Part shown: positions 33,959 to 52,252 of the stretch, piece after piece
Position numbering within the stretch: position 1 is the first letter of the stretch
How the letters are laid out: each line of letters opens with the position of its first letter
DNA from: Candidatus Latescibacterota bacterium
GTDB lineage: Bacteria > Latescibacterota > UBA2968 > GCA-2709665
Direction of reading: 5' to 3'
Assembly: GCA_965116875.1 (NCBI GenBank)
Contig: OZ220733.1
Coordinates: forward strand, 1,376,001 to 1,440,000
DNA: 64,000 bases
Notes under the pieces: generated by a model
Databases searched by the model: none
Told to the model about the DNA's origin: nothing
The model's input: the letters and a program-made list of their open reading frames with translations, nothing else
Position numbers and translations under genes: made by a program

Positions 33959-34085
33959 ATCGATACCTGTGTGTTTCCGGTCAAGTCCGGATCCTGGAAC
34001 GGGATCCGGCCAGAGGCGTTCCGGATCTTATCCTGCCCATTCTGTTTATCCATAGTCTTTGAGTGAATCCGGATATGGAATTTCC

Positions 34086-34114
34086 TTGACTCTCTCGATG
34101 TGATTGTTTAATGT
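34086..34114 (+). promoter_or_regulatory. Sigma70 promoter of the trp/aro cluster
   Basis: TTGACT-N17-TAATGT. Confidence 0.6.
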
Positions 34115-34193
34115 TAGACCGTTCCTGCCGAAGCGGTTGTTTGCCGTTGCGCGGCACGAAACCGGCAGGACACCGGATCGTGGAGGATTGAAC

Positions 34194-34301
34194 GTGACCG
34201 ATCGGAATCGAAACGGGTTTTCCTGGCGTGGGTATTTTTATCGCTCCTACCGGAGGTATTACCGGGAGGCCTCGGATTGTTGTGTCTGCCCACGCGAGTA
34301 A
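34194..34301 (+). CDS. Putative attenuator leader peptide (35 aa, Trp/Tyr/Phe-rich)
   Basis: GGAGGA at 34182-34187, GTG start; MTDRNRNGFSWRGYFYRSYRRYYREASDCCVCPRE; followed by a terminator, then trpE. Confidence 0.75.
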   Translation: MTDRNRNGFSWRGYFYRSYRRYYREASDCCVCPRE

Positions 34302-34326
34302 ACTGCTGAAAGAGACGTAAACCGGG

Positions 34327-34355
34327 CCGTGGGCATCTGCTCACGGTTTTTTTTT
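34327..34355 (+). terminator. Attenuator terminator hairpin (3:4) upstream of trpE
   Basis: ccgtgggc-atct-gctcacgg followed by 9 T. Confidence 0.85.
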
Positions 34356-34423
34356 GATACGGACAACACAGGACGCCGGTGCCGCGAAACAGCGGCACAA
34401 CCGGCCGACTGCCTGGTGAACTC

Positions 34424-35905
34424 GTGAACACACCCGATTTGGAGACGCTGAAGACATTGGCCAGGGGCCGGGGTATCGTTCCAATCTCCCGCGAAATCCT
34501 AGGGGATACGGAAACGCCGGTTTCCGCCTATTTGAAGCTGCGGACCGGAAGTCCCTACAGCTTTCTCTTCGAAAGCGTGGAGGGAGGGGAAAAGATCGGC
34601 CGTTATTCCTTCCTGGGCGTGGAGCCGTTTCTTGCGTTTCGGTCGTGGAAATCCCGGATTGAGATTGAAGATCTGAAGCGGGGCGGCGTAAGGGCATATG
34701 AGGGATCGCCCATCGCCGAGCTCAGGCGCCTGTTGGGAAAATACCGCTCGGCGCAGTTGGAGGGGCTGCCCCGGTTTACCGGCGGAGCCGTGGGATACGT
34801 GGCCTACGATGCAATCCGTCTGGTCGAAAATATCCCGGACCGAACGCGAGACGACCACGGTTTGCCCGACGTCGTGTTGCTCTTCTACGATACGCTTCTT
34901 GGCTTTGACAACGTACGGCAGAAGATCCATCTGATCTCCAATGTACATACCGCGGGAGATATCGAGCGGAATTACCGGGAGGCGGAAGCGCGAATCGATG
35001 CGATGGAAACGGCATTGCGCGGACCGATTCCCGCCAACGGTGTCCCGGCCGGAACGCCGCGCAACCGGGCGAGCGAAATCCGGTCGAACACGGAACGGTC
35101 GGTTTTTCTGGACAAGGTGCGTCGCTGCAAGGAATATATCGTGGCGGGCGATATTTTCCAGGTTGTACTCTCGCAGCGTTTCGAAACCGAGGTCACCGTG
35201 GGATCTCTGGACGTCTACCGCGCGCTGCGCACGGTGAATCCGTCGCCTTATATGTTTCATCTGGACTTCAGTGACGTGCAACTCGTAGGCGCGTCGCCGG
35301 AGCTGCTGGTTCGTGTTGAGAACGGCGTCGTGCAGGTTCGTCCCATTGCGGGCACGCGCTGGAGAGGGGCTACGGAAGAGGAGGATTCCACCCTCGAGGC
35401 GGACCTGCTGGCGGACGAGAAGGAACGTGCGGAGCATATTATGCTACTGGACCTGGGCCGGAACGACGTTGGCCGTGTGTCCCGTTACGATTCCGTACGT
35501 GTAACCGAACAGATGGCGGTTGAGCGCTATTCTCACGTGATGCATATCGTCTCGAACGTTCAGGGGCATCTCAGGGACGGCGTGGATGCGCTGGATGCGC
35601 TGTATGCGTGTTACCCGGCAGGTACCGTTTCCGGCGCGCCCAAGATCCGGGCGATGGAAATTATCGACGAACTGGAGCCGACTCGCCGTGGACCGTACTC
35701 GGGGGCAGTGGGATATATTGATTTTTCGGGCAATATGGACACGTGCATCGCCATACGTACGATGGTGCTTCAGGGGCGCAAGGCGTACGTTCAGGCCGGC
35801 GGAGGGATTGTGTTCGATTCCGTGCCGGAAAACGAACACCTGGAAACGGTAAACAAGGCGAAGGCGCTGTTCAGGGCAGTGGAGCTGGCGGAGGGTGCGG
35901 ATTAG
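34424..35905 (+). CDS. trpE: Anthranilate synthase component I
   Basis: DTETPVSAY, FLFESVEGGEKIGRYSF, GDIFQVVLSQR, NPSPYM, KERAEHIMLLDLGRND; start uncertain. Confidence 0.95.
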   Translation: MNTPDLETLKTLARGRGIVPISREILGDTETPVSAYLKLRTGSPYSFLFESVEGGEKIGRYSFLGVEPFLAFRSWKSRIEIEDLKRGGVRAYEGSPIAELRRLLGKYRSAQLEGLPRFTGGAVGYVAYDAIRLVENIPDRTRDDHGLPDVVLLFYDTLLGFDNVRQKIHLISNVHTAGDIERNYREAEARIDAMETALRGPIPANGVPAGTPRNRASEIRSNTERSVFLDKVRRCKEYIVAGDIFQVVLSQRFETEVTVGSLDVYRALRTVNPSPYMFHLDFSDVQLVGASPELLVRVENGVVQVRPIAGTRWRGATEEEDSTLEADLLADEKERAEHIMLLDLGRNDVGRVSRYDSVRVTEQMAVERYSHVMHIVSNVQGHLRDGVDALDALYACYPAGTVSGAPKIRAMEIIDELEPTRRGPYSGAVGYIDFSGNMDTCIAIRTMVLQGRKAYVQAGGGIVFDSVPENEHLETVNKAKALFRAVELAEGAD

Positions 35906-35934
35906 CATTGGCGATGTACACTACGATTCTCTAA

Positions 35935-36096: not shown

Positions 36097-36119
36097 TAAC
36101 AATCAGACCTGATTGATCT

Positions 36120-36683
36120 ATGATCCTGGTAATCGACAATTACGATTCGTTCACGTACAATCTGGTCCAGTATCTGGGCGAGTTGGGCGCCCGGATGGAG
36201 GTGTATCGGAACGATCAGATTGAACTTGACCGGATTGACGCGACTCTACCGGAGAAGGTGGTGATTTCGCCCGGCCCCTGCACGCCGAACGAGGCGGGAG
36301 TCAGCGTGGACCTGATCCGGCGATTTGCCGGGCGGATTCCGATGCTGGGGGTCTGTCTCGGGCACCAGTGCATCGGACAGGCCTTTGGCGGCAAGGTCGT
36401 GGGGGCGCCGGCAATTTTCCACGGGAAAGTGTCCGAGATTCATCACGACGGTCGTACGGTTTTCCGGGATATGTCCCAACCCTTCATCGCAACGCGATAC
36501 CATTCGCTGATGGTCGAGCGGGAGAGCCTGCCGGACTGCCTCGAAGTGTCCGCGCAGACGCACAACGGAATCATCATGGGTTTACGGCACAGGAAATATC
36601 CGGTTGAGGGCGTGCAGTTTCATCCCGAGTCCATATTGACGGCCGAGGGAAAAGTGTTGTTGAGGAATTTTCTGGAAGGCTGA
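36120..36683 (+). CDS. trpG: Anthranilate synthase component II (glutamine amidotransferase)
   Basis: [34 protein letters not shown]. Confidence 0.95.
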
Positions 36684-36688
36684 ACTAG

Positions 36689-36848
36689 CAGCCCGTTGAA
36701 AAAGCCCATCCGGGCTGCGGCCGGCCCTTGCGGTCGAAATACTGCGTTGCGCTCCCTCGCCGAATCAAGGGATGGGACTCGGTCGCGCGCCTTGTCTTCG
36801 ACCACAATGACTCGGCCTCGCCTGCAGAGCGACTTTATCAACGGACTG
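36689..36848 (+). mobile_element. MITE family A, full 160-bp copy between trpG and trpD
   Basis: Same IRs; flanks CTAG / TTAG (one mismatch). Confidence 0.85.
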
Positions 36849-36901
36849 TTAGGGGACCGGAAGCCGGTTCCGTTCTCTTCTCGCATTTCAGGGAGACGGC
36901 T

Positions 36902-37915
36902 ATGGCGATACAGGATGCGATCGCGAAACTGATCGAGGGGCAGGACCTCGCGCGTGAACGGATGATCGGGGCGATGAACCGGATCATGTCGGGTGGGGCC
37001 ACGGACGCGCAGATCGGCGCTTTCCTGGTGGCTCTCCGGGTCAAGGGCGAAACAGTCGAGGAAATTGCCGGCGCCGCCAGGGTGATGAGGGAGAAGGCGA
37101 CACGGGTCGACACGCGGCACGCGACCGTGGTCGATACATGCGGTACCGGAGGCGACGGTTCGGGAACGTTCAATATCTCCACGGCGGCGGCGTTTGTCGT
37201 GGCCGGCGCGGGATTGTGTGTCGCCAAACATGGCAACCGCGCCGCATCCAGCCTCTGTGGCAGCGCCGACGTTCTGAAGGAACTGGGGGTGAACATCGAA
37301 GCGTCGCCGGAGACGATGGGGCGGTGTCTGGACGAGGCGGGAATCGGGTTTCTCTTTGCTCCGGCCTTGCACGGCGCCATGAAATTTGCGATCGGACCCA
37401 GGCGGGAACTCGGGGTGCGCACGATTTTCAACGCCCTGGGACCGCTGACGAATCCGGCAGGCGCCACCCGGCACCTGATCGGGGTATACAGCCGGTCTCT
37501 GACCGACACGCTGGCGGAGGTATTGCGAACACTGGAATCGGAACGCGCGTTTGTGGTACACGGGCTGGACGGACTTGACGAGATCACCACGACCGGACCG
37601 ACGCAGGTGAGCGAGTTGAATGACGGGACCGTCTCCACGTACGAAATCACGCCCGAGGACCTGGGCATCTCAAGGGCTTCGCCGGGCGACCTGGCGGGAG
37701 GCAGCGCCGAGACCAATGCGGCGATCCTGCGCAGGGTGCTGCATGGCGAGCCCGGTCCGCGGCTTGACGTCGTTCTGCTGAACGCGGCGGCCGCAATTGT
37801 AGCGGGCGCCGCCGCGGATGATCTGCCGGCGGCTATTGAGCTGGCCAGGGAGACCGTGGATTCGGGGCGGGCGATCGAAAAACTGGAAAAACTCAAGCTG
37901 GTTTCGGCCGGATAA
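36902..37915 (+). CDS. trpD: Anthranilate phosphoribosyltransferase
   Basis: DTCGTGGDG..TFNIST, AKHGNR, GSADVL, RTIFN.LGPLTNP, DGLDE. Confidence 0.96.
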   Translation: MAIQDAIAKLIEGQDLARERMIGAMNRIMSGGATDAQIGAFLVALRVKGETVEEIAGAARVMREKATRVDTRHATVVDTCGTGGDGSGTFNISTAAAFVVAGAGLCVAKHGNRAASSLCGSADVLKELGVNIEASPETMGRCLDEAGIGFLFAPALHGAMKFAIGPRRELGVRTIFNALGPLTNPAGATRHLIGVYSRSLTDTLAEVLRTLESERAFVVHGLDGLDEITTTGPTQVSELNDGTVSTYEITPEDLGISRASPGDLAGGSAETNAAILRRVLHGEPGPRLDVVLLNAAAAIVAGAAADDLPAAIELARETVDSGRAIEKLEKLKLVSAG

Positions 37916-37916
37916 A

Positions 37917-38708
37917 ATGGCTACCATCCTGGATGAGATCATCGCATACAAAAGACGCGTTGTGGCCGAGGCAAAACAGCGGATTTCGCCTGAGGACTTG
38001 CGTACACAGGCCGGCCGGACGCGGAAGCCGGGCTCCCTGACGGAATGCCTGACCGCCGTTGAGGATATCGCGCTCATAGCCGAAATAAAAAAGGCATCCC
38101 CATCGAAAGGGGTGATCAGGAAAGACTTCGATCCGGTTGCAATCGGCCGGGCCTACGAGAAAAACGGCGCGGCGGCAATTTCCGTGCTTACGGACGAGAA
38201 GTATTTTCAGGGCTCCAACGCGGGCCTGAGTGCCGTAAGCGAAGCCGTTCAATTGCCGATACTCCGCAAGGATTTCGTGATCGATCCGTATCAGATTCTC
38301 GAAGCCAGGACAATCGGTGCGGCCGCGGTTCTGCTGATTGTCTCGGCGCTCTCGAAACCTGCACTGTCGGAGATGCTCTCAGTCTGCAGAGATTTGGAAC
38401 TGGACGCCCTGGTGGAAGTACATACCAGGGAGGAAGCGAGTATGGCGCTGGATGCCGGCGCGGATCTTGTGGGGGTGAACAACCGCGACCTGAAGACGTT
38501 CGAGACCGATCTGCGAACCACGTTCGACCTGATTGAACATTTTCAGGGAAATCCGGTTATTGTAAGCGAGAGCGGGATCGAGACCAGAAACGACGTCGTC
38601 CGGTTGAGGGATGCCGGCGTGGATGCGGTGCTGGTCGGGGAACATCTGATGCGTCATCCCGACGTCGGCCGGAAGCTTCGGGCGCTGCTGGGCAAGGAAG
38701 GCGGGTGA
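37917..38708 (+). CDS. trpC: Indole-3-glycerol phosphate synthase
   Basis: LIAEIKKASPSKG, ISVLTD, LRKDF, GVNNRDL, SESGI. Confidence 0.96.
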   Translation: MATILDEIIAYKRRVVAEAKQRISPEDLRTQAGRTRKPGSLTECLTAVEDIALIAEIKKASPSKGVIRKDFDPVAIGRAYEKNGAAAISVLTDEKYFQGSNAGLSAVSEAVQLPILRKDFVIDPYQILEARTIGAAAVLLIVSALSKPALSEMLSVCRDLELDALVEVHTREEASMALDAGADLVGVNNRDLKTFETDLRTTFDLIEHFQGNPVIVSESGIETRNDVVRLRDAGVDAVLVGEHLMRHPDVGRKLRALLGKEGG

Positions 38709-39349
38709 CCGGACTCATGGTTCGTGTGAAGATTTGCGGGATCACAAATCCGGAGGATGCTCTCTTTTCGGTCGCACACGGTGTGGACGCGCTCGGGTTC
38801 ATCTTCTACGAGCACAGCCCGCGATACGTACCCCCGGAACGCGTGAGCGATATTGTTTCGGCGTTGCCGCCGTTCGTGACTCCGGTAGGGGTTTTCGTGA
38901 ATACGGACAGGGCGGAGATCCTGAAAACCGTGCGGTCAACCGGAATACGGGCGGTCCAGTTGCACGGCGACGAAACGCCGGCCGACTGTCTGGGATATCC
39001 GTTTCCGGTCATCCGCGCATTGCGGGTTGGTGACGGATTCGATCCTGCTTCCCTGAGCGACTATCCGGTAAACACGTTTTTGCTGGATACGGCCAGGAAG
39101 GGATGGTACGGCGGCACCGGAGAGACCTTTGACTGGCGGTTGGCAAGGGCGGCAACCGCACACGGGCGGATCATCCTCTCGGGAGGAATGGATCCGTCGA
39201 ACGTGGCAGAAGCGGTCCGAACGGTGAATCCGTACGCCGTAGACTGCGGCAGCGGTGTTGAAGCCGCGCCGGGCCGGAAAGACCATGCCAGAATCCGGGA
39301 ATTCCTGGGTGCGCTCCGCCTTGTGAACCGCCACAATCAGCCTGCATGA
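38705..39349 (+). CDS. trpF: Phosphoribosylanthranilate isomerase
   Basis: VKICGIT, SPRYV, QLHGDE, GGTGETFDW, GVEAAPGRKD. Confidence 0.95.
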   Translation: MTGLMVRVKICGITNPEDALFSVAHGVDALGFIFYEHSPRYVPPERVSDIVSALPPFVTPVGVFVNTDRAEILKTVRSTGIRAVQLHGDETPADCLGYPFPVIRALRVGDGFDPASLSDYPVNTFLLDTARKGWYGGTGETFDWRLARAATAHGRIILSGGMDPSNVAEAVRTVNPYAVDCGSGVEAAPGRKDHARIREFLGALRLVNRHNQPA

Positions 39350-39384
39350 ATCCACTATTGCGAATTTGACCGGAGCCCAATTCC

Positions 39385-40647
39385 GTGGATATATTGAAAG
39401 ATCTGGACCATCGGGGGTACCTCTTTCAGGTAACGGACCCCGATGGACTCAAGTCGCGGCTGACCGATGGGCCCATAACGCTCTATTCAGGGTTCGACCC
39501 CACGGCCGACAGCCTGCACGTGGGCAATCTGATACCCATTCTCGGATTGCGGCGGTTTCAGTTGGCCGGGCATCATCCAATCGGGCTTATCGGGGGAGGC
39601 ACGGGGCTGATAGGCGATCCGAGCGGCAGCAAGGAAGAACGTCCGTTGAACCCGCCCGAATTGATCGCGGAATATACCGGAAAACTTACAGAACAACTCG
39701 CCAGGTTCCTCGATTTCGAGACGGGAACCAATCCCGCCCGTGTGGTCAGCAATCTGGGATGGCTCTCCGAACTGAAGGCGATTGATTTCCTGAGGGACAC
39801 GGGCAAGCACTTCTCCATGGGCTATATGCTGGCGAAAGAGTCCGTGGCTTCCCGGCTGGAGACCGGGATTTCATTCACCGAGTTCAGCTATATGGTCATT
39901 CAGGCCTATGATTTCATGGAGTTGTATCAGACGCGCGGATGCGAACTTCAGATTGGCGGGAGCGATCAATGGGGCAACATCACAGCGGGCATCGAGCTGA
40001 TCCGGCGCCGGATGGGCAAACAGGCGCACGGCCTGACGTTTCCACTGCTTGAAAAGGCCGACGGCTCCAAGTTCGGAAAGACGGCATCCGGCACCGTCTG
40101 GCTCGACGCGGAAAAAACGACGCCCTACCAGTTCTACCAGCACTGGATCAATACGGACGACCGGGACGTCGTGAAGTTTCTGAAGCTGTTTACCTTTCTT
40201 GCCGGGAGTGACATTGAAAATCTGGAAATGGAGGCGGCACAACACCCCGGGAAGCGAGAGGCACAGCGGGTGCTGGCGGAGGAAGTCACCACGCTCGTAC
40301 ACGACAGGTCGGCCGCGGAAAGGGCGCGGCGGATTTCCAACGCGCTGTTTTACGGGGACCTGAAAGACCTGAGTGCCAGAGAGATCGAGGAAGGGTTCAG
40401 CGACGTGCCGTCTCAGACGCTCAATGGCATTTCAGGCGTGGAACTGATGAATCTGCTGGTCGACGTTGGCATTTCATCCTCCATGCGCCAGGCGCGGGAA
40501 GATATCCGGTCCGGCGCGATATCCGTCAATGGCCGGCGATGCGCCGATACGGGCATGATGCTTGAACCCTCGGACAGAATCGCAGGGAGGTACGTGGTCG
40601 TGCGCCGGGGCAAACGGCGCTACTTTCTCGTGCGCTGGAATCTCTGA
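39385..40647 (+). CDS. tyrS: Tyrosine--tRNA ligase
   Basis: GFDPTADSLHVGN, IGDPSG, QIGGSDQWGNI, KFGKT, C-terminal S4-like RRGKR. Confidence 0.97.
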   Translation: MDILKDLDHRGYLFQVTDPDGLKSRLTDGPITLYSGFDPTADSLHVGNLIPILGLRRFQLAGHHPIGLIGGGTGLIGDPSGSKEERPLNPPELIAEYTGKLTEQLARFLDFETGTNPARVVSNLGWLSELKAIDFLRDTGKHFSMGYMLAKESVASRLETGISFTEFSYMVIQAYDFMELYQTRGCELQIGGSDQWGNITAGIELIRRRMGKQAHGLTFPLLEKADGSKFGKTASGTVWLDAEKTTPYQFYQHWINTDDRDVVKFLKLFTFLAGSDIENLEMEAAQHPGKREAQRVLAEEVTTLVHDRSAAERARRISNALFYGDLKDLSAREIEEGFSDVPSQTLNGISGVELMNLLVDVGISSSMRQAREDIRSGAISVNGRRCADTGMMLEPSDRIAGRYVVVRRGKRRYFLVRWNL

Positions 40648-40743: not shown

Positions 40744-41721
40744 ATGAAAGCACCCTGGATTACCTATCGGCCGGAACTCAAGGTACTGGACTGTACGATT
40801 CGAGACGGCGGATTGATGAACGACCACCAGTTTCCCAATGATTTCGTAAAGGCGGTCTATGAGACCTGCGTCGACGCGGGCGTCGACTATATGGAAATCG
40901 GATACCGGAACTCCAAGGAGATGTTTCCGAAAAAACAATTCGGAGCCTTCCGGCACAGCGACGAAGAAGATATCCGCAGGATCACGGGGGACCACGACTC
41001 TGAAGCAACCGGCCTGAAGCTCGCCATCATGGCCGATGCAGGCAAGAGCGACTGGGCGGAAGATATCCTGCCGGCCAGCGAAAGCGTGGTCAGCATGGTT
41101 CGGGTGGCCTGCTACGTCGAGCAGATTCCCGAGACAGTTGAAATGCTCTGCGACGCCCACGAGAAGGGATATGAAACCAGTTGCAACATCATGGCCATAT
41201 CGACCGTGCAGGAAGTCGAGATCGATCAGGCGCTGGAGGTCCTCGTACAGACGCCTGTCGGAACGATCTGCGTTGTAGACAGCTTCGGCGCATTGTACCG
41301 CGAGCAGGTGGATATGCTCATCCGGAAGTATATGGATGCCGTGGAAGGAACGGGAAAGGAAGTGGGCATTCACGCGCACAACAACCAGCAGCTGGCATTC
41401 GCCAATACCATCGAAGCGCTTATTCTGGGCGCCAACCGCGTTGATGCCACGGTGGACGGACTTGGCCGCGGCGCAGGGAATTGCCCGCTTGAACTGCTGC
41501 TCGGTTTCCTGCGCAATCCGAAATTCAGGATTCGACCCGTCTACAAGCTGCTGGAAGACCATTTTGTCGGATTGCGCGAGCAATTGACGTGGGGACCCCT
41601 TGTACCGTACAACATCACAGGGCAGCACAACCAGCATCCCCGTTCGGCGATGGCGCTTCTGGACGGGGACGACCGCGACTGCTATCTGGCGTTCTACGAT
41701 CAGGTGATGAGGGACATCTAG
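40744..41721 (+). CDS. HMGL-like (DRE-TIM) aldolase/lyase-family protein
   Basis: [37 protein letters not shown]. Confidence 0.85.
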
Positions 41722-42926
41722 TGCTCAACAGAGACGAAGCCGCACGGACCTGGCCGGACGCCGGTGGGCACTTCGGACCCTACGGCGGGCGCTATGTGCC
41801 GGAAACGTTGATGCCGTTGCTCGAGGACCTGGAGGCCGCCTACCGCGATGCGAGGGACCGTCCGGATTTTCGCGAGGAACTGGACCGGTATCTCAGGGAA
41901 TTTATCGGAAGGCCCACGCCACTCTATTTCGCGCAGCGACTTTCCGAAGAACTGGGCGGGGCCAGGATCTATCTGAAACGGGAGGACCTCGCCCACACCG
42001 GCGCGCACAAGATCAACAACACGATGGGGCAGATTCTGCTTGCCAGACGCATGGGCAAAACACGGATCATTGCCGAAACGGGCGCCGGGCAGCACGGCGT
42101 AGCGACCGCAACCGTAGCTGCGATGTTCGGACTGAAGTGCGAGATTTACATGGGCACCGAGGACATGGACCGGCAGGCGTTGAACGTGTTCCGGATGCAA
42201 CTCCTGGGAGCAAAAGTAACCGGCGTGGATTCGGGAAGCAGGACGCTCAAGGATGCGATCAACGAAGCAATCCGGGACTGGGTGACGAATGTGGACGATA
42301 CGTTCTATATTTTCGGATCCGTCCTGGGACCACACCCGTATCCAATGATCGTACGGGATTTTCAACGGGTGATCGGGGTGGAGACGCGCGCGCAGATCCT
42401 GTGCGCCGAAGGCCGGTTGCCGGACTGTCTGATTGCATGCGTCGGCGGCGGCAGCAATTCAATGGGTCTGTTTCACGCGTTTCTGGACGATACGGACGTG
42501 CGTATGATCGGCGTCGAAGCAGGAGGCCATGGCATTGACTCGGGTGACCACGCCGCCCGGTTTCAGGGAGGAGATCTGGGCGTACTGCACGGTGCCAGGA
42601 TATACCTCCTGCAGGACGAGGACGGGCAGATCGCACTGACCCATTCGGTATCGGCAGGCCTGGACTATTCCGGCGTGGGACCCGAGCACTGTCTCCTGCG
42701 GGATGAGGGTCGGATCGAGTATGCGTATGCAACCGACGACGAAGCCCTGAAGGGGTTCCAGCAGTTGAGTCGCACGGAGGGGATCATTCCCGCGCTGGAA
42801 AGCGCGCACGCGATCGCGCACGTGTCGAAGGCGGCGCCCGGAATGGAAAAGGACGCCGTAATCGTGGCGAATCTTTCCGGCCGCGGCGACAAAGACGTAC
42901 AGCAGGCGGCGAAGCACCTGGAGTAG
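41721..42926 (+). CDS. trpB: Tryptophan synthase beta chain
   Basis: [53 protein letters not shown]; GTG start overlaps the upstream stop. Confidence 0.97.
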
Positions 42927-42948
42927 TGCGTAGCACGGAGTTGCCCTG

Positions 42949-43761
42949 ATGACAAGGATCGGGAGACGGTTCGAAGCGTTGAAGAAAGCGGGAAAGACCG
43001 GATTTGTCGCCTATATTACGGTGGGAGACCCGGATATGGCTACCACCCGGAAACTCGTACCGGAGCTGGAACGGCGCGGGGTGGACATACTCGAGCTGGG
43101 CGTGCCGTTCTCCGATCCGCTGGCTGACGGTCCGGAAATCCAGGCGGCCTCGCAGCGGGCACTGAAGCATCGGGTTTCAATCGGCGACGTATTGGATCTG
43201 GTGGCGGACCTGCGGCTGGAGTCCGAGATACCCATTGTCCTGTTTACCTATTTCAATCCGATGCACCGCTACGGTCTTGAACGGCTCGTCTCCAGAGCGG
43301 CCGAAGCGGGGGTGGACGGCATTCTGGCGCTGGATCTTCCACCGGAAGAGGCGGGAGAGTACAAGGCTCTGATGGAAAAGCGGGGACTGGATACGATCTT
43401 TCTGATCGCGCCCACCAGCCGCGAGGACCGCATTCGACGGATTGCGTCTCACACCAGCGGATTTGTGTATTACGTGTCGCGCACGGGCGTAACCGGGGAG
43501 CGGGACAGTCTGGAGGAGACGCTTGGCGACCGGGTGACGGCAATCCGTCGGCATACCTCGCAACCGGTAGCTGTCGGATTCGGGATTTCGACACCCGAAC
43601 AGTCTGGGGAAGTTGCAGGTTATGCGGATGCCGTCGTCGTCGGCAGCGCCATCGTTCGGCGAATTGCGCAACGGCAGACCGACCCGGACCTCGTTTCGCA
43701 CATCGGGGAATTCGTCGAAGAACTGGTGCAACCGCTGAAGGGAGCATCCGATGGATCTTGA
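42949..43761 (+). CDS. trpA: Tryptophan synthase alpha chain
   Basis: ELGVPFSDPLADGP.IQ, DLPPEE, VSRTGVTG, GFGIS, VVGSA. Confidence 0.97.
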   Translation: MTRIGRRFEALKKAGKTGFVAYITVGDPDMATTRKLVPELERRGVDILELGVPFSDPLADGPEIQAASQRALKHRVSIGDVLDLVADLRLESEIPIVLFTYFNPMHRYGLERLVSRAAEAGVDGILALDLPPEEAGEYKALMEKRGLDTIFLIAPTSREDRIRRIASHTSGFVYYVSRTGVTGERDSLEETLGDRVTAIRRHTSQPVAVGFGISTPEQSGEVAGYADAVVVGSAIVRRIAQRQTDPDLVSHIGEFVEELVQPLKGASDGS

Positions 43762-44014
43762 AGACTGGCGTAAGGAAATCGACGTGCTGGACGCAAAGCT
43801 GCTGAAGCTGCTGAATCGAAGGGCCGAATGCGCCATTGAAATCGGCAGGATCAAACGGACAATCGAACAACCGATCTACGTGCCGGAACGGGAGATTTCG
43901 ATCCTGAAACGATTGCTCGAACAGAATAAAGGGCCCATGGACGACGAGGCGGTGCGACGGATCTTTCGGCAGATCATCGACGAGTCCAGGAGGCAGGAGC
44001 AGGATGAACGGTAA
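43751..44014 (+). CDS. Chorismate mutase (AroQ type II, monofunctional)
   Basis: LEDWRKEIDVLD.KLL.LLNRR....EIG.IK...IY.PERE...F.QII.ESR. Confidence 0.9.
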   Translation: MDLEDWRKEIDVLDAKLLKLLNRRAECAIEIGRIKRTIEQPIYVPEREISILKRLLEQNKGPMDDEAVRRIFRQIIDESRRQEQDER

Positions 44015-44123
44015 ACCGGAGGCGCGAAACACCTCTAGCAGTCCGTCTTGAGACATTACGCGAAAACGGCCTGGCAATTCACCAGGGATTGAAGGTCGCT
44101 ATCTGCCACGGAGTCGAAACCAC

Positions 44124-45152
44124 ATGGCGTTCACGAAACACATGAAGACACCCACGCCTGAAGCTGTGCTGGAGAAGGTGTCGCTGCCGACAGGACTGAA
44201 GAAGATAAAGGAGGAACGCGACACCGAGATCAGGGAAATATTCGAGCGCGTGAGCGATAAATTCCTGCTGGTAATCGGCCCCTGCTCAGCGCACAATGAA
44301 GACGCCGTTTGTGAATACGTCTCCAGGTTGGCGAAGCTGCAGGAGGCCGTCCGGGAACGGCTGGTTCTGGTTCCCCGCATCTATACCAACAAACCGCGAA
44401 CGACCGGCGAGGGGTACAAAGGCATGGGACATCAGCCGGACCCGCGGAAGGCGCCGGATATGGCCGAAGGGATCTACGCGGTGCGTCAGATGCACATCCG
44501 CGCAGTCCGGGAGTCCCACCTGACAGCGGCCGACGAAATGCTGTATCCGGGCAATCTCCCTTATGTCGAAGACCTGCTGAGCTATATAGCCGTGGGCGCG
44601 CGATCCGTGGAAAACCAGCAGCACCGTTTGACCTGCAGCGGCGTTGACGTCCCGGTTGGCATGAAGAACCCGACGGGCGGAGATCTTTCGGTAATGCTGA
44701 ACGCGATTCACGCCTCGCAGATCCCGCACGTCTTCATCTATAACGGTTGGGAGGTCGGCACCGGCGGCAATCCCCTTGCGCACGCCGTGCTCAGGGGCGC
44801 GGTGGACCTGACCGGACGAAGTAATCCGAACTATCACTACGAAGACTTGATGTACGCGGCGGAACTGTATCGACAGCGGTCGCTTGCCAATCCAACAATC
44901 GTCGTGGATACGAATCACAACAACTCCGGCAAGCAGTTCAGCGAACAGCCGCGGATCGGGTTGGAAGTGATACGCAGCCGGCAGAGTTCGGCGTTTTTGA
45001 ACGATATGATCCGCGGGTTGATGGTGGAGAGTTATCTGGTTGAGGGGGCACAAGACGTTAATAACGGCGTGTACGGCAAATCCATTACCGATCCGTGCCT
45101 GGGGTGGAAAGATACCGAGGCGTTCGTAAGGGAACTGGCGGAGGGGATATGA
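44124..45152 (+). CDS. 3-deoxy-7-phosphoheptulonate (DAHP) synthase, class I
   Basis: IGPCS, KPRTTGEGYKG, VGARSVE.Q.HR, VGMKN, LRG, GKSITDPCLGW. Confidence 0.93.
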   Translation: MAFTKHMKTPTPEAVLEKVSLPTGLKKIKEERDTEIREIFERVSDKFLLVIGPCSAHNEDAVCEYVSRLAKLQEAVRERLVLVPRIYTNKPRTTGEGYKGMGHQPDPRKAPDMAEGIYAVRQMHIRAVRESHLTAADEMLYPGNLPYVEDLLSYIAVGARSVENQQHRLTCSGVDVPVGMKNPTGGDLSVMLNAIHASQIPHVFIYNGWEVGTGGNPLAHAVLRGAVDLTGRSNPNYHYEDLMYAAELYRQRSLANPTIVVDTNHNNSGKQFSEQPRIGLEVIRSRQSSAFLNDMIRGLMVESYLVEGAQDVNNGVYGKSITDPCLGWKDTEAFVRELAEGI

Positions 45153-45230
45153 TCGCGAACGGGATCGGAACCGGGAAGCCGATGGCAACCTGCTGCCGGC
45201 GCTTTTGCCTGTTCTTCCGAGGATGACGGC

Positions 45231-46343
45231 ATGGCCAACGATCCTCCTTTTGCGCGCGATACGATTGCCGTTGTCGGGGTGGGGCTGATCGGCGGCTCGC
45301 TTGGTCTGGCGCTCAAGGGTCTGGGCATCGGTCGACGCGTCGTCGGCGTGAGCAGGCAGGAGACCCTGGATGCCGCCATCGGGCTGGAGGTGATCGACGC
45401 GGGTTATCGCTATGAAGACCTCGAAACCGGGATTCGCGATGCAGCGCTGGTTTTCCTGTGTACGCCCATCGTCCGTATTCTGGACATGCTTCCCGCGGTG
45501 CTGGGAGCGGCGCGGCAGGATGCGCTCGTGACCGACGTGGGCAGCACCAAGCACGCGATTGTCTCCACGGCGGCGGCCCATGCACGGGATGACGTGCATT
45601 TTGTCGGTGGGCACCCGATGGCCGGTTCGGAGCATCGGGGGGTGCGCGCGGCGGATCCGTTTCTTTTTCAGAATGCGATTTACGTGTTGACGCCGTCGCC
45701 GGACACGCCCGATTTCGTGGTCGAAACGCTCGCTCGTCTCGTAAAGGCGTTCGGGGCCAGGCCGATGAGGATGACGCCCCGTGAACACGACCGGGCCGCG
45801 GCAGCGGTGAGCCACCTGCCGCAGATGATGGCCACCAGCCTGGTTTCCATGATCGGAAGGATGACGGAAGACGACGGGTTGCCCATACGAATGGCGGCGG
45901 GGGGGTTTCGGGACCTGACTCGCATTGCTTCCAGTCCGTATGAGATGTGGCGGGACATCTGCCACACGAACGCGACCCCGATCCGCGAGATGATCGATCT
46001 TTATATAGAGTCGCTTTCGGCGATTCGCTCGGCCGTGGACCGCGACGGTCTGGAACAGGCATTTGCCTATGCGAATCGAATACGCGGACAGATCCCGAAG
46101 GACTCCAAGGGATTCCTGCATCCATTGCACGAGATCCTTCTCCTGGCGGAAGACAGCCCGGGTGTGATTGCGCACGTCGCCCGGACACTGGCCGGAGAGA
46201 ATATCAACATCAACGACATCGAGGTGATGAATGTGCGCGAGGGGGAAGGGGGCACAATTCGAATGGGGTTCGATTCGCGTCCCTGCGCGGAACTGGCTGT
46301 AGAAGTGCTGGGAAGGGCGGGGTACAGCGTCAGAATGAGGTAG
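45231..46343 (+). CDS. tyrA: Prephenate/arogenate dehydrogenase with C-terminal ACT domain
   Basis: GVGLIGGS, TDVGSTK, GGHPMAGSE, HD...A.VSHLP, GGFRDLTRIA; ACT DSPGVIA....NINDIE. Confidence 0.92.
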   Translation: MANDPPFARDTIAVVGVGLIGGSLGLALKGLGIGRRVVGVSRQETLDAAIGLEVIDAGYRYEDLETGIRDAALVFLCTPIVRILDMLPAVLGAARQDALVTDVGSTKHAIVSTAAAHARDDVHFVGGHPMAGSEHRGVRAADPFLFQNAIYVLTPSPDTPDFVVETLARLVKAFGARPMRMTPREHDRAAAAVSHLPQMMATSLVSMIGRMTEDDGLPIRMAAGGFRDLTRIASSPYEMWRDICHTNATPIREMIDLYIESLSAIRSAVDRDGLEQAFAYANRIRGQIPKDSKGFLHPLHEILLLAEDSPGVIAHVARTLAGENININDIEVMNVREGEGGTIRMGFDSRPCAELAVEVLGRAGYSVRMR

Positions 46344-46347
46344 GAAG

Positions 46348-47688
46348 TTGTCCGTGCATCGGGGACTCCATTTTGAAGAAGGCGTGGATTTGGAACTCGC
46401 GGGTCCGATCATTTCCGAAGACACCATCAAGCCGTCGCCGGGGCTTGCCGGAGTCTGCGACCTCCCCGGCGATGCTCAAATCTCGATAATTGCCCTCGCC
46501 CTCGCGTCCACTGCCGACGGAGTTTCCAAAATTCGCAGGTGTTCGCGAAGCCGCGACGTTAGGCGCGCCGGTGAATTGCTGTCGAAAATCGGGATTGGGG
46601 TCGCGTGGGACGGTGAGACCGCAACGGTAACCGGCGGCCCGTTCCGGGAAACGTGCGACGTGCTCGACGTGGACGGTTCCCTTATTCTGTTTTCCTGTCT
46701 GACCGGATTGTTGTCGAGCGCCTCCTACGTAACGAGACTCTCCGGAGTTCACACCAACACCGGCGTCGACCGGGTGTCCGAGGCGCTTCGATCGCTGGGC
46801 GCCCACGTGAAACTTTCGGTCGGAGACGGGATATCGGCCTGTGTTGGAAGGTCAAGGTTGACGTCCGGTACCTTCCATGCGGGACGTCCCGACCCGGCGG
46901 TGAAATGCGGCGTCCTGTTGGCCGGGCTGGGTGTGGACGGGCCGGTCGAACTCCTGCAGGACGCCGTCGGGGATGACGACCTGGAAGTGTTGCTTCGGGC
47001 CGCGGGATGCGAACTGAAGAAGAGGCGGATCACGGGCGCCGGAGGTTGTCAGCTGTTGCTGGACGGACCCGTTCGGCCCCGCGCCGTTACCCATGAACTG
47101 CCGGGCAGTTCCGACGCCGGGCTGTTTCTTGCCCTGGCTGCGGCGATGCGGAAACAGTCCGATCTGACGCTGAGCCATTTCGGAATGGACTTGAAAAGCC
47201 GCCGGATCGTGGACATACTGCGCAGGATGAACGTGGCCATGGACGTGGAGCACACCCGGACGGATTCCGGTTTCCCTGCCCGGAACGTCCGGATCAGGGG
47301 GTCCGACCTGCGCGGAATAAGGATTGCAGGCGCGAACGCGCGGCTTTTGGGGGACCTGCTCCCGCTCATGGCGGTCGCGGGCGCCGTTTCCCGGGGCGAG
47401 ACCATAATACGGGATGCCGAGGCATTGAGGAAGGGTCCGGTTGACTGTATTTCGGTCCTGGTGGAAAACCTGAGGAAGATGCACATTCAGATGGGAGAGA
47501 TGCCGGACGGGCTGATTGTGAAGGGGGGAAGACCTCAAGGCGCCGAACTGGATGCCGCCGGCGACGCCCGCGTGTCCATGGCGCTCCGGCTTGCAGCGCT
47601 TGCCGGCGAGGGGGACACAGTCGTCAGGAACCCGGGGCCCGCGGATCAGGGGTTGATGGACCGGCTGGCGTCGGTACAAAAAGCTTAG
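46348..47688 (+). CDS. EPSP synthase (AroA)-fold protein with degenerate active-site motifs
   Basis: Length and motif order follow AroA (LPGDxxIS, VKCGVLLAGL, GETIIRDA.AL, MPDGLIV.GG, GDxRVSMA); sits between tyrA and aroE. Confidence 0.75.
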   Translation: MSVHRGLHFEEGVDLELAGPIISEDTIKPSPGLAGVCDLPGDAQISIIALALASTADGVSKIRRCSRSRDVRRAGELLSKIGIGVAWDGETATVTGGPFRETCDVLDVDGSLILFSCLTGLLSSASYVTRLSGVHTNTGVDRVSEALRSLGAHVKLSVGDGISACVGRSRLTSGTFHAGRPDPAVKCGVLLAGLGVDGPVELLQDAVGDDDLEVLLRAAGCELKKRRITGAGGCQLLLDGPVRPRAVTHELPGSSDAGLFLALAAAMRKQSDLTLSHFGMDLKSRRIVDILRRMNVAMDVEHTRTDSGFPARNVRIRGSDLRGIRIAGANARLLGDLLPLMAVAGAVSRGETIIRDAEALRKGPVDCISVLVENLRKMHIQMGEMPDGLIVKGGRPQGAELDAAGDARVSMALRLAALAGEGDTVVRNPGPADQGLMDRLASVQKA

Positions 47689-48071: not shown

Positions 48072-48938
48072 TTGGGAATTGTCTCGACCACGCGATTGCT
48101 GGGGGTGATCGGCGATCCCATCGCCCACTCGTTATCGCCGGACATGCACAACGCGGCCATAGGCGCGCTTGAAGTCAATTACTGTTACGTCGCCTTTCAC
48201 GTATTGCCGGACGGGATTGAATCGGCGCTTGACGGTATGCGCGCATTGCAGATCACGGGATTGAACGTTACCCTTCCCCACAAATCCGCGGTGATGCCGC
48301 ACCTGGACCGGATTTCGGAAGAAGCAATGGCCGTGGGCGCGGCGAACACGATTTCTCTCAGGGACGGCGAACTGGTCGGTGAGAATACCGACGTGTACGG
48401 ATTGGTCACGGCCCTGGAGCGCACCGCGGGTCTCGCCGTGCTGCCAGAGCATTGCGTGATCCTCGGAGCGGGCGGCGTTGCGCGGGCGGCGGTTTACGCG
48501 CTGGCGTCGCGAAAAGAGGTGAGGCGGGTGAGCATTCTCAACCGAACCGTCGCCCGGGCTGAGGCTCTCGCGCGCGATATGCAACGCATAACGGGTAAGG
48601 CGATCGACGCGGGTGATCTGACGAAGGACACGCAAATGAGGCGGTTCGCGGACGCGGGCCTCGTTGTGAACGGAACGTCGCTGGGGATGGTTCCTGAAGT
48701 GGACCGGACGCCCCTGGCGGATGGGGACGCGGTACACCCGCAGCTGGTACTCTACGATACGGTTTTCAATCCGCTGGATACGCTCCTGATGCGTCAGTTC
48801 CGATCCGCCGGAGCGCGGGCGTTCGGCGGGCTGGATATGCTTGTGCACCAGGGTGCGCGATCGTTTGCCATCTGGACCGGCATCGAGCCGCCCGTCGACG
48901 TAATGAAGAGGGCGATTATCGGCCGGTTTCGGACGTAA
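48072..48938 (+). CDS. aroE: Shikimate dehydrogenase
   Basis: GDPIAHSLSP.MHN, GLNVTLPHK, GAANT, NTD, GAGG, NRT, GLDMLVHQG. Confidence 0.94.
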   Translation: MGIVSTTRLLGVIGDPIAHSLSPDMHNAAIGALEVNYCYVAFHVLPDGIESALDGMRALQITGLNVTLPHKSAVMPHLDRISEEAMAVGAANTISLRDGELVGENTDVYGLVTALERTAGLAVLPEHCVILGAGGVARAAVYALASRKEVRRVSILNRTVARAEALARDMQRITGKAIDAGDLTKDTQMRRFADAGLVVNGTSLGMVPEVDRTPLADGDAVHPQLVLYDTVFNPLDTLLMRQFRSAGARAFGGLDMLVHQGARSFAIWTGIEPPVDVMKRAIIGRFRT

Positions 48939-48940
48939 CC

Positions 48941-49660
48941 GTGGCGACTTCCAACCATCAGGAACGCAATGGCCGGCGGACCTTCGTGCGTCAGATGTTC
49001 GACGGTATTGCCGGCACGTACGATCTGCTGAACCACCTGTTGAGCGCCGGCGTGGATATTCTCTGGCGGCGCTGGACAGTCGACGCGCTGGATCTGAAAG
49101 CGGGCTGGTGGGTCCTGGATCTGGCAACCGGAACGGCCGATCTGGGTCTCGAGGCGGCTGCGCGCGACCCGGGGGTCCGGGTTGTGGGCGCCGATCTTTC
49201 CCTGCCTATGCTTCGGATCGGGAACAGAAAGCGAAAGAAAAAACCCGGCCGGCTGTACCTGCTTCGGGGAGACGCACAACGGCTGCCGTTTCCGGATGCA
49301 CGGTTTCACGCGGTAACGATTGGCTTCGGAGTCCGGAACTTTTCGGACCTGAACGCCGGCCTTCTCGAGATACTCCGTGTCCTGCGCCCGGGGGGCCGGC
49401 TGGCGATTCTGGAGTTTTCCCGCCCCAGGGCGTTTCTGTTGAGCAGGGTGTATCTCTTCTATTTCAGATTCATCCTTCCCGGAATCGGTCGCCTTGTTTC
49501 CCGGAATCCTCTGGCGTATCGGTATCTCTATGAGTCCGTAATGCGGTTTCCGGAGGGTGAGGCGTTTCGAATGCGTCTGGCAGATTCGGGATTTCTGGAG
49601 CCGGTGGAACGCAGGCTGACCCTGGGTATCGCCACGCTCTACCTGGCGTCAAAACCGTAG
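48941..49660 (+). CDS. ubiE: UbiE/MenG-family quinone C-methyltransferase
   Basis: MFDGIAGTYDLLN..LSAG, LDLATGTAD, FGVRN, RVLRPGG..ILEFS, YRYL.ES. Confidence 0.9.
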   Translation: MATSNHQERNGRRTFVRQMFDGIAGTYDLLNHLLSAGVDILWRRWTVDALDLKAGWWVLDLATGTADLGLEAAARDPGVRVVGADLSLPMLRIGNRKRKKKPGRLYLLRGDAQRLPFPDARFHAVTIGFGVRNFSDLNAGLLEILRVLRPGGRLAILEFSRPRAFLLSRVYLFYFRFILPGIGRLVSRNPLAYRYLYESVMRFPEGEAFRMRLADSGFLEPVERRLTLGIATLYLASKP

Positions 49661-49680
49661 AAGCGGGGAGACGGACCTAC

Positions 49681-49928
49681 CCCCTTACCCCCTTCCTGAA
49701 GGAAGGGGGAACGGTGACCGGTGGATGAACCGGGTTTGTGACGTGCCGGGATGGCGTTTTCCTTTCCATCAGAGTGTCTATCAAAGACCGGCACGCGACG
49801 TGTGCCTTTCCTCCCTCTCTCCCGGTGGGAGAGAGGGCCGGGGAGAGAGGTCTGCGGGGTGGTGAGGGGTTGCTTTTGCCTTTCGCCTTTGGCTGACGGC
49901 TGATCGCTGAGAGCTGAAAACTGAAAGC
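49681..49928. repeat. Intergenic cluster of REP-like hairpins and a degenerate 7-mer tandem repeat
   Basis: cccccttcc-tgaa-ggaaggggg; ccctctctccc-ggt-gggagagaggg; ggctgac ggctgat cgctgag agctgaa aactgaa. Confidence 0.6.
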
Positions 49929-49965
49929 CTTTTTGAGGGGCTCTGGGGTGGAGAGGTCCTGCCAT

Positions 49966-51669
49966 ATGGCCAATCCTTTTATTGAAGAAATCGTATCGCG
50001 TGTATCAGCGGCAACCCGCATGCCCCCGGATGAGGTGAGAACCCTGGTCGAGGTTCCTCCAAAACCCGAGATGGGGGATTTCGCGCTTCCGTGCTTCAGA
50101 TTTGCAAGAACACTGCGTAAAGCGCCGAATCAGATCGCCAGGGACCTTGGGGAAAGGATACAACCCGCCGGACGAATCGCCCGGGTGCATGCGGCGGGGC
50201 CGTATCTCAATTTCTACGTGAGCCAGACCGAATTCGTAAAGGAGACGCTTTCGGAAATCCTCGCCAGGGGCGGGGAATTCGGCCGGAGCGACGTGGGCGC
50301 AGGAAAGACGGTCGTGATCGATTTCTCCTCGCCGGATGTCTCCAAGCCGTTCACGATCGCGCACATCCGATCGACTGCAATCGGGAACTCGCTCTGCAGG
50401 CTGTACAGGGCGACGGGGTGGAACGTGATCGGCATCAACCACCTTGGGGACTGGGGCGCCAAGCACGGAATGAGCATCGCCGCGTACAAGCGCTGGGGAA
50501 ACGACGACGCAATCCGTGAAAATCCGCCCTACGAGCTCTTCAATCTTTACGTAAAATACAATGCGGAGATGGAAAAGGACCCGTCCCTCGGAAACGACGT
50601 GAAATACTGGACGAAGAAACTGGAGGCGGGCGACTCCGAAGCGCTTCGGCTATGGAGCTGGTTCAGAGACGAGACGGTCAGGGACTTCAAACGGATTTAC
50701 GGACTGCTGGACGTCGGGTTCGCGGAATATACAGGTGAGAGTTTCTTCCACGACAAGGTCGGGCCCGTCATCGACGAACTGAAGGCCGGGGGAATTGCCG
50801 TGGAAAGCGAGGGCGCCCTCGTGGTGATGCTCGACGATGAGGACATGCCGCCTGCCATCATCCAGACCGGGCATGATACCAGCGTTTATCTCACACGGGA
50901 CCTGGCGGCGGCAATCTACCGGAAGCAGACCTACGATTTCGACAAATTGATCTATACGACGGACGCCGGGCAGTCCCTGCACTTCCGGCAACTCTTCAAG
51001 GTATTGGAACGGATGGGCCATGAATGGGCGAAGGACTGTGTCCACGTCCCGTTCGGAATTATTTCCTTCAAAGAGGGAAGGATGTCGACCCGCAGGGGAA
51101 ACGTGATCTTCCTGGAGGACGTGTTGAACCGCGCAATTGAGCTGACGCGGGAAATTGTAGAAAGCAAGAATCCGGATCTTCCGGAAAAGGATGCGATCGC
51201 CCGGGACGTGGGCATCGGCGCGGTCGTCTATGCGGACCTGGATTCCCGCCGGACGCGGGACGTCGTGTTCGACTGGGATGAGATCCTGAACTTCAACGGC
51301 GAGACCGGCCCGTACGTTCAATACACCCATGCCCGATATTGCAGTGTGTTGCGCAGGTTCGGGGGCGCGGTGCCGCCCCCCGGCGCGGACCTTTCTCTTT
51401 TAACCGAACCCGAGACCGTGGCGGTGGTCAAGTGCATGGAGCGGTTTCCCGAGCGAATCCGGAACGCGGCCGAAACCTGTGAGCCCTCACTGATTGCCGG
51501 GTTCCTGATCGAACTCTGCGCCGAGGCGAACCGGTTCTACAACGCCCACAGGGTCATTTCGGACGACGTTCCCCTGACCCGGGCGCGCATCGCGCTCGTC
51601 TATTCGATTACCGCGGTGCTGGCAGCCGGACTCCATCTGCTGGGCATGAAGGCGCCGGAGGAAATGTGA
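49966..51669 (+). CDS. argS: Arginine--tRNA ligase
   Basis: DFSSPDVSKPFTIAHIRSTAIG, NHLGDWG, YLTRDLA, MSTRRG, GETGPYVQYTHAR. Confidence 0.96.
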   Translation: MANPFIEEIVSRVSAATRMPPDEVRTLVEVPPKPEMGDFALPCFRFARTLRKAPNQIARDLGERIQPAGRIARVHAAGPYLNFYVSQTEFVKETLSEILARGGEFGRSDVGAGKTVVIDFSSPDVSKPFTIAHIRSTAIGNSLCRLYRATGWNVIGINHLGDWGAKHGMSIAAYKRWGNDDAIRENPPYELFNLYVKYNAEMEKDPSLGNDVKYWTKKLEAGDSEALRLWSWFRDETVRDFKRIYGLLDVGFAEYTGESFFHDKVGPVIDELKAGGIAVESEGALVVMLDDEDMPPAIIQTGHDTSVYLTRDLAAAIYRKQTYDFDKLIYTTDAGQSLHFRQLFKVLERMGHEWAKDCVHVPFGIISFKEGRMSTRRGNVIFLEDVLNRAIELTREIVESKNPDLPEKDAIARDVGIGAVVYADLDSRRTRDVVFDWDEILNFNGETGPYVQYTHARYCSVLRRFGGAVPPPGADLSLLTEPETVAVVKCMERFPERIRNAAETCEPSLIAGFLIELCAEANRFYNAHRVISDDVPLTRARIALVYSITAVLAAGLHLLGMKAPEEM

Positions 51670-52229: not shown

Positions 52230-52252
52230 GGCAACGGAAGACGCCACTGCTT

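Follow-up and report, generated by a model that had tools for sequence, protein, structure and literature searches.

A Candidate Leader-Peptide Attenuator with Mixed, Tyr-Dominated Aromatic Control Codons before trpE in Latescibacterota

Introduction

How might a bacterium adjust an operon in which the trp genes stand in one line with the genome's only tyrS and with genes of the Tyr/Phe branch? This question is raised by a locus of Candidatus Latescibacterota bacterium (assembly GCA_965116875.1), where a short open reading frame (ORF) rich in aromatic codons lies directly before trpE. Leader-peptide attenuators are textbook devices for Trp, Phe, His, Leu, Thr, and Ile/Val, and a literature search found no description of a Tyr-responsive or Trp/Tyr/Phe leader-peptide attenuator like this element. 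We analyzed a 64,000-nucleotide (nt) stretch of contig OZ220733.1 (positions 1,376,001 to 1,440,000 of the forward strand), hereafter the window, and all coordinates without a locus label count from its first letter. Judged from its sequence, the element is probably a ribosome-mediated (leader-peptide) transcription attenuator of the trpL kind, with mixed aromatic control codons that are dominated by Tyr and include Trp and Phe. What is new here is the Tyr-dominated mixture of control codons, the order-wide family to which the leader belongs, and the supra-operon that holds the genome's only tyrS.

The Leader ORF and Its Alternative Helices

The features of the element are listed below in the order in which they occur; SD denotes the Shine-Dalgarno sequence and UTR the untranslated region.

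34086..34114, plus strand: putative promoter, with -35 TTGACT (34086-34091), a 17-nt spacer, and -10 TAATGT (34109-34114), read from the sequence
34123..34170, plus strand: genus-specific 5'-UTR hairpin between promoter and SD, arms TCCTGCCG / CGGCAGGA (inverted repeat of 8 nt, 100%)
34182..34187, plus strand: SD GGAGGA, 6 nt 5' of the GTG
34194..34301, plus strand: leader ORF of 35 codons plus TAA (GTG 34194-34196, stop TAA 34299-34301), translated as MTDRNRNGFSWRGYFYRSYRRYYREASDCCVCPRE
34218..34262, plus strand: control codons F9-Y23, FSWRGYFYRSYRRYY, with 8 aromatic and 4 Arg codons
34219..34234, plus strand: segment 1, partner of segment 2 (1:2 energy -20.9 kcal/mol)
34287..34302, plus strand: segment 2, core TGCCCACG at 34287-34294, spanning the last four codons and the stop
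34328..34335, plus strand: segment 3, CGTGGGCA, antiterminator with segment 2 (-16.2 kcal/mol) or partner of segment 4
34324..34355, plus strand: intrinsic terminator, hairpin 34324-34349 (3:4, -16.1 kcal/mol) followed by T9 (34347-34355)

A rereading of the sequence agreed with the first-pass annotation, which had reported the SD, the GTG start, the 35-codon ORF, eight aromatic codons in residues 9-23, and eight Arg codons over the whole ORF. The aromatic codons comprise one W, two F, and five Y, and over codons 9-24 Arg and Tyr are equally frequent (five each). At least eight W/F/Y per 15 residues were found in only 1 of 96,457 stop-free stretches in the six frames of the window, and this sole case was the leader itself. 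In the 17 operon genes that served as background, aromatic residues made up 6.6% (Y 2.7%, F 3.3%, and W 0.6%) and Arg 8.4%. Tyr is therefore clearly enriched in the leader of this genome (5 of 35, vs. 2.7%).

The first-pass annotation had also described a 1:2 / 2:3 / 3:4 geometry, and the arms of all these helices were found in the window. The inverted-repeat search returned the 1:2 arms at 34219-34232 and 34289-34302 (14 nt, 86% complementary) and the 2:3 arms at 34287-34294 and 34328-34335 (8 nt, 100% complementary), and the terminator scan returned the hairpin at 34324-34349 with 11 pairs, 6 of them G-C, and a loop of 4. The 5'-UTR hairpin appears in the minimum free energy fold; it is missing from the other genera, whose 5' UTR is shorter.

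A Proposed Course of Attenuation

From this layout we infer leader translation, ribosome stalling, the read-through response, the amino acids sensed, and the transcript length, and the element would work in the following way. Transcription would start ~70 nt upstream, and a ribosome would translate the 35-codon leader. With charged tRNA-Tyr, -Trp, and -Phe plentiful, the ribosome would reach the last codons and the stop, which lie on segment 2. As segment 2 would then be covered by the finishing ribosome, segment 3 would pair with segment 4, and the 3:4 hairpin with U9 would end the transcript 69 nt before trpE, which is the distance from the end of the T-run to the trpE start. A stall at an aromatic codon within 9-23, on the other hand, would leave segment 2 free, and in the window's genus segment 1 would also be masked. 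Segment 2 would pair with segment 3 before segment 4 exists, and the polymerase would continue into trpEGDCF-tyrS-trpBA, the genes for chorismate mutase (CM) and DAHP synthase, tyrA, and aroA, possibly further. As the operon includes the only tyrS of the genome, tyrosyl-tRNA synthetase (TyrRS) and the Tyr/Phe branch would come under charging-dependent control through the Tyr codons, of the sort that T-boxes provide in other lineages. A leader of this composition may sense all three aromatic amino acids, that is, be trivalent.

The effect of the ribosome was modeled by masking 30 nt around each A-site codon and cutting the transcript before segment 4. The modeled probability of the 2:3 helix, P(2:3), was 0.5-0.7 at F9-W11, lower at codons 12-14, and 0.67-0.93 at F15-S18, with 0.93 at R17; it was 0 once the ribosome covers segment 2, at codon 28 and beyond. 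Folding with a ribosome footprint, a check suggested along with the first reading of the locus, thus favored 2:3 for a stall at codons 9-11 or 15-18. The free full transcript folds to 1:2 plus the terminator (P 0.99), and the complete transcript gives the terminator at any ribosome position; the informative version is the one cut before segment 4. Since the full-length equilibrium favors the terminator, as in classical attenuation, the decision must be kinetic.

Distribution of the Leader in Related Genomes

The trpE loci of 41 related genomes were collected by TrpE searches, and 29 of them had enough upstream DNA. An aromatic-rich small ORF was present upstream in 29 of these 29 loci, and a run of at least six T followed ~45-65 nt past the stop in 24. 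A covariance model was built on the 29 aligned leaders. It gave exactly one match in the window's own genome (137 bits), and over 132 genomes of the class it matched 21 of 21 in family f1 and 30 of 31 in f2, the two families of the window's order, as well as 1 of 3 in f3 (weakly) and 0 of 76 in f4. The matches adjoin trpE in every listed case. In the one f2 genome without a match, the contig ends 140 nt before trpE. Among the TrpE-related loci listed, which belong mostly to other phyla, the leader was carried by only 1 of 80 (L040).

For the comparison of the ORF we used 52 good matches from 11 genera. A start codon and a length of 25-35 codons were kept in 52 of 52 leaders, and an SD-like motif of at least 3 nt in 51. 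Aromatic residues accounted for 18-39% of the leader in each of the 11 genera, compared with the 6.6% of the operon genes. The conserved aromatic-rich ORF before trpE on which the first-pass annotation had staked its reading was therefore borne out across all of these leaders.

Weak full-length matches to the model (~31-33 bits) were also seen in two genomes of genus g6 (L150, G030:C1:4496359-4496506, and L151, G028:C25:10189-10336). There an F-rich ORF of ~42 codons ending in ...RGDVCPG/C is followed by two terminator-like hairpins and then a methyltransferase-like gene. By its sequence, this element may be a diverged second leader. Two further weak second matches were plain terminators.

Constraint on the Codons of the Leader

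We compared 13 distinct 35-codon leader sequences of the window's genus. At codons 12-20 and 22-25, the changes were only synonymous (CGT/CGC, GGG/GGA, TAT/TAC, and CGC/CGT) or from Tyr to Phe; at codons 3-10 and 26-30, the amino acid varies freely. Two silent changes of the core, CGT to CGC and GGG to GGA, lie within segment 1, where they disrupt its pairing with segment 2. They weaken the 1:2 helix, and the constraint therefore points to the codons rather than to the RNA. Over the whole ORF, variable sites at codon positions 1, 2, and 3 numbered 11, 13, and 17, respectively. Because the third position is only mildly favored over the whole ORF, it is the core that argues for codon constraint. 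The two Trp positions are less strictly kept. Among the 13 sequences, one has Leu in place of W11 and five have R, L, or Y in place of W21 (position 21); in one more species of the genus, with a 34-codon leader, W11 is replaced by Arg. In the 29-sequence alignment, T68, T71, and A72 of the Y22-Y23 codons are invariant.

Leader Composition and the Synthetase Embedded in the Operon

The position of tyrS between trpF and trpB was seen in 11 genomes of f1, f2, and f3. In the sister family f4, the cluster order was trpEGDC-trpS-CM-tyrA-aroA-aroE-argS-aroK-aroB in 5 of 5 loci, and 13 of 13 loci have an ORF upstream that carries, for example, RRWWWRFW or RYWWRF. We tallied W, F, and Y over the last 26 leader residues, with the following result.

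tyrS clade, 52 leaders: median W 2 (1-2), F 3, Y 5 (2-6); tandem WW in 0 of 52, YY in 47 of 52
f4, 13 leaders: median W 3 (2-4), F 1, Y 1 (0-2); tandem WW in 12 of 13, YY in 1 of 13

The same tendency was seen within f3, where a genome without a synthetase in the fetched stretch has WW and two Y, and a genome with tyrS has four Y and one W. In other classes of the phylum (140 genomes searched), mixed motifs such as F-W-Y-W-R or R-W-Y-W-R-R-F stand before trpE in some families and no such motif in others, and no synthetase was seen in the operons of those classes. Taken from sequence comparison, these distributions suggest that the codon make-up of the leader is linked to the embedded synthetase, Tyr-rich with tyrS and tandem-Trp with trpS. 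The contrast between the tyrS clade and f4 makes a tuning of leader codons to the synthetase genes of the operon directly testable.

On a wider reading, the leader would sense Arg in addition to Tyr, Trp, and Phe, four amino acids in all; it would be matched to the synthetase genes as well as to the biosynthetic pathway and would stand in for T-boxes at both tyrS and argS. The first-pass annotation had already pointed to the Arg codons and the downstream argS, an aside that keeps some weight. Arg makes up 12-21% of leader residues in each of the 11 genera, against a background of 8.4%, and argS is a conserved operon member whether the clade carries tyrS or trpS. By the ribosome model, a stall at one of these Arg codons should favor the antiterminator as much as one at an adjacent Tyr codon. 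In E. coli trpL, too, the Trp codons are followed by Arg. A W-W-R motif also occurs in the trpS leader of the window's genome (argS was not looked for downstream of that trpS), so an Arg that follows Trp may be unrelated to argS. The CGN codons may simply serve base pairing. We regard this extension as tentative and on balance doubtful.

The occurrence of Trp codons in every leader invites a simpler explanation, namely an attenuator that is Trp-only or Trp-dominant, in which the Tyr and Phe codons are passengers of sequence or structure constraints. None of the 52 leaders is without a W, and the majority of species in the window's genus carry both W11 and W21. W-rich leaders, for instance with WWW or W-Y-W, occur in related families and in other classes of the phylum, and the operon itself opens with trp genes. 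However, the leader of the window's genome has a single, nontandem W, and both W11 and W21 are replaced in some species of the genus. The Tyr positions vary only to Phe or synonymously, YY is present in 47 of 52 leaders with the Y22-Y23 bases named above invariant, and the Tyr-rich form goes together with an operon-borne tyrS. Control by Trp alone or chiefly by Trp is therefore unlikely, and the attenuator with mixed, Tyr-dominated codons is preferred.

Two observations on these clades stand apart. A second type of TyrRS, 27-34% identical to the TyrRS of the window and a full TIGR00234 match, occupies the place of tyrS in genera g2, g5, and g13 (L032:5123-6346, L034:12180-13391, and L172:5619-6825); the G043 copy lies in two blast segments. 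On sequence comparison, this type is a predicted nonorthologous replacement at the same operon place. In f4, a TrpE match at E up to 1e-100 was obtained in only 13 of 41 sampled genomes and, with this query, in none of whole genera such as g25, g24, and g17, which may be Trp auxotrophs or may have a divergent TrpE.

Conservation of the Helices and Weighing of the Attenuator Reading

Whether the stems covary in relatives, another point that the first reading of the locus had left to be checked, received a divided answer. The terminator does covary, with 96.6% of cells paired and four pairs changed on both sides among the 29 sequences, and 0 of 500 shuffles scored as high. The core of the 2:3 helix, UGCCC/GGGCA, is invariant or nearly so, and 88% of its cells are paired. 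The best partner of the terminator 5' arm lies at the end of the ORF in 48 of 52 leaders, two of which, from genus g10, have it just past the stop. What argues for 2:3 is this fixed position on the last codons of the ORF and not its energy, because shuffled upstream sequence often matches the energy. The 1:2 helix as drawn seems to be a genus-level feature, and other genera seem to have other upstream partners for segment 2 or none; outside the genus, this part of the geometry proposed at first was not supported.

Several results weigh against a Tyr-dominated attenuator of the trpL kind. The 2:3 helix is without covariation, both arms being nearly invariant in the 29 sequences, and mononucleotide shuffles reached its duplex energy (median -16.25 kcal/mol over 52 leaders) in 2-84% of cases. 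As drawn, the 1:2 helix pairs in only 70% of cells of the 29 sequences, and 142 of 500 shuffles were as high. The folding energy of the whole leader is ordinary (z -0.77 and -0.84, with 45 and 36 of 200 shuffles folding equally well), and the region holds 2 terminator-like sites versus 1.3 expected from shuffles. In the ribosome model, P(2:3) is ~0.07 at Y22/Y23 of the window's genome; this low value arises because the model lets 1:2 close around the ribosome, the steric possibility of which is doubtful. The model gave a mixed picture in other genera and failed for g10, where the ORF stops earlier, and for several genera it forms 2:3 at any ribosome position upstream of segment 2. In those genera the element would be a three-segment switch, and untranslated RNA would read through. 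A search of sequencing runs listed no RNA run that covers this stretch. As for the composition, F (2 of 35) is barely above its background of 3.3%, and W occurs only once in the leader of the window's genome. The contrast between tyrS and trpS operons is no statistical test, because it represents one or two evolutionary events among kin, and biosynthetic gene content alone does not predict the leader make-up, because the f4 operon has CM and tyrA and yet a Tyr-poor leader. The aroR leader before aroF of Corynebacterium glutamicum, which has Phe-Tyr-Phe codons, is described in a review as responsive to Phe and not to Tyr (Neshat et al. 2014, via PMC11802643). Finally, a consensus scan accepted no site at 34086-34114, where the first-pass annotation had placed the promoter, although a similar -35/-10 layout is kept in relatives: by eye, TTGACA as -35 with TAAT(C/G)T or TATCTT as -10, spaced 16-18 nt, stands upstream of most of the 52 leaders.

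The near-identity of the helix arms could also point to a structured RNA that acts without translation, an unknown riboswitch or a protein-binding leader in which the ORF is incidental. Segments 2, 3, and 4 are nearly letter-identical over two families, beyond the needs of pairing, and without covariation the pairing and the sequence constraint in 2:3 are not separable. This near-invariance is, however, expected where one stretch pairs with two partners and also encodes peptide. The start codon, ORF length, and stop position kept in all 52 leaders, the SD-like motif in 51, and the substitutions that respect codons even where they weaken 1:2 all speak against an incidental ORF. No Rfam family matched either: Rfam release 15 gave 0 matches at the gathering score over the whole window and only two chance-level ones at E up to 10 in 33900-34500, and none anywhere in the window for Trp_leader (RF00513) or T-box (RF00230). 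At 97.7% completeness, the genome has no match to TRAP (mtrB, PF02081), though (G/U)AG repeats in the leader were not systematically looked for, and none to Spo0A. We consider such an RNA very unlikely.

Slightly less likely still is a sensor of the TnaC kind, in which the nascent peptide together with a free amino acid would arrest the ribosome. The conservation of W-R, of R-Y-Y, and of V-C-P close to the C-terminus would suit it, but the peptide flanks vary freely, the V-C-P codons coincide with the segment 2 RNA, and a ribosome arrested close to the stop would cover segment 2 and so favor termination at amino acid plenty, for which classical attenuation suffices. A small functional peptide or a precursor of a ribosomally synthesized and posttranslationally modified peptide, suggested by the richness in Cys and aromatic residues, is scarcely credible, as the ORF always lies between promoter and terminator directly before trpE, no modifying enzymes are nearby, there is one copy per genome, and length and flanks vary. 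The attenuator with mixed aromatic codons thus remains our preferred explanation of the element.

The Operon Headed by the Leader

The genes that follow the leader are listed here with their family matches.

34424..35905, plus strand: trpE, GTG start in frame, ORF open from 34379 (TIGR00564, 594 bits)
36120..39349, plus strand: trpG, trpD, trpC, and trpF (NCBIfam; starts of trpD and trpC uncertain)
39385..40647, plus strand: tyrS, the only one of the genome (TIGR00234, 398 bits)
40744..41721, plus strand: HMGL/aldolase-like gene between tyrS and trpB (NCBIfam matches all below cut-off, the best being 4-hydroxy-2-oxovalerate aldolase)
41589..43761, plus strand: trpB (start uncertain) and trpA (NCBIfam)
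43751..47688, plus strand: chorismate mutase (43751-44014), DAHP synthase, tyrA, and aroA (NCBIfam)
48072..53389, plus strand: aroE, menG/ubiE, argS, aroK, and aroB (NCBIfam; order kept in relatives)

All named operon genes lie on the plus strand from 34424 to 53389, over ~19 kb. The gene order was kept in the loci of 7 of 9 relatives; the other two (L037 and L038) have insertions behind trpG, after which their 20-kb stretch runs out early. The HMGL/aldolase-like gene was present in 3 of the 9 loci (L035, L038, and L039; genera g1 and g6) with 88-93% identity, and was absent from other genera. No other convincing intrinsic terminator was found inside the cluster. It contains promoter-like sites, for example at 39366-39395 just before tyrS, and gaps of 215-384 nt.

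Three spacers of the cluster have features of their own. The trpE-trpG spacer (35906-36119) is 214 nt long, versus 15-90 nt in other genera, and holds a minus-strand terminator-like hairpin at 36038-36023. Within the 384-nt gap between aroA and aroE, an ORF of ~46 codons with a hydrophobic N-terminal half lies at 47794-47933, preceded by an SD-like GGAGAG (by eye). The spacer before argS (49660-49933, 273 nt) is GC-rich, repeat-like, and hairpin-rich (e.g., cccccttcc...ggaaggggg), without an Rfam match.

Other Aromatic Synthetases of the Genome

A second leader ORF was observed ~140 nt before trpS (L190:1343-1480; G000:C1, 2999646). It is the tandem-Trp ORF MAARCGNSGSWWRYDLNRTGQLTAC, followed by a GC hairpin and T7, with a fold z of -5.08. 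A leader ORF with W-x(0-1)-W precedes trpS in 20 of 21 f1 loci, compared with 0 of 9 in genus g6. The genome has a single T-box-like element (L189:285-567; G000:C1:3824184-3824466), which scored 78.9 bits, below the cut-off of 93. It precedes the gene for an archaeal-type pheS alpha subunit (NF003210, 525 bits), and its specifier, read by eye, is UUC. With the T-box-like element before pheS, the tandem-Trp leader before trpS, and the mixed leader ahead of tyrS, the genome thus appears to have three charging-sensitive devices for its three aromatic synthetases, and the lineage would control each of these enzymes in a different way.

Comparison with Known Attenuation Systems

The leader of E. 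coli trpL has 14 codons and carries a tandem Trp pair, whereas the leader studied here has 35 codons with one Trp, five Tyr, and two Phe codons. In other respects the element is like trpL of E. coli and Salmonella (the Yanofsky model, RF00513). Both have a short ORF with control codons in or near segment 1, the 1:2, 2:3, and 3:4 alternatives, a terminator just before trpE, and an ORF end that places the finishing ribosome on segment 2. Unlike the operon behind trpL, the operon here adds tyrS, genes of the Tyr/Phe branch, shikimate genes, and argS.

Mixed aromatic codons that control an aromatic-pathway operon by stalling are shared with the aroR leader of C. glutamicum, the closest precedent met in the literature. 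That leader belongs to another phylum and has aroF rather than trpE as the first gene, and the review passage describing it reports no Trp codon and mentions no synthetase; the comparison is by description only (PMC11802643). A Phe-codon ORF upstream of aroF is also described for Acholeplasma (PMC8632094). For synthetase genes, leader-peptide attenuators are described before pheST in gamma-proteobacteria and before trpS and leuS in Streptomyces (PMC1262725). As described there, these leaders have codons for the amino acid of the synthetase that follows, and the trpS of the window's genome likewise has a WW leader; unlike all of these, the tyrS here is the fifth to sixth gene of a biosynthetic operon, behind a leader in which codons for several amino acids are mixed. 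The T-boxes of tyrS, trpS, pheS, and aromatic operons in Firmicutes follow the same logic, with expression going up when the cognate tRNA is uncharged. However, T-boxes bind the tRNA directly, whereas sensing by the leader before trpE would go via the ribosome.

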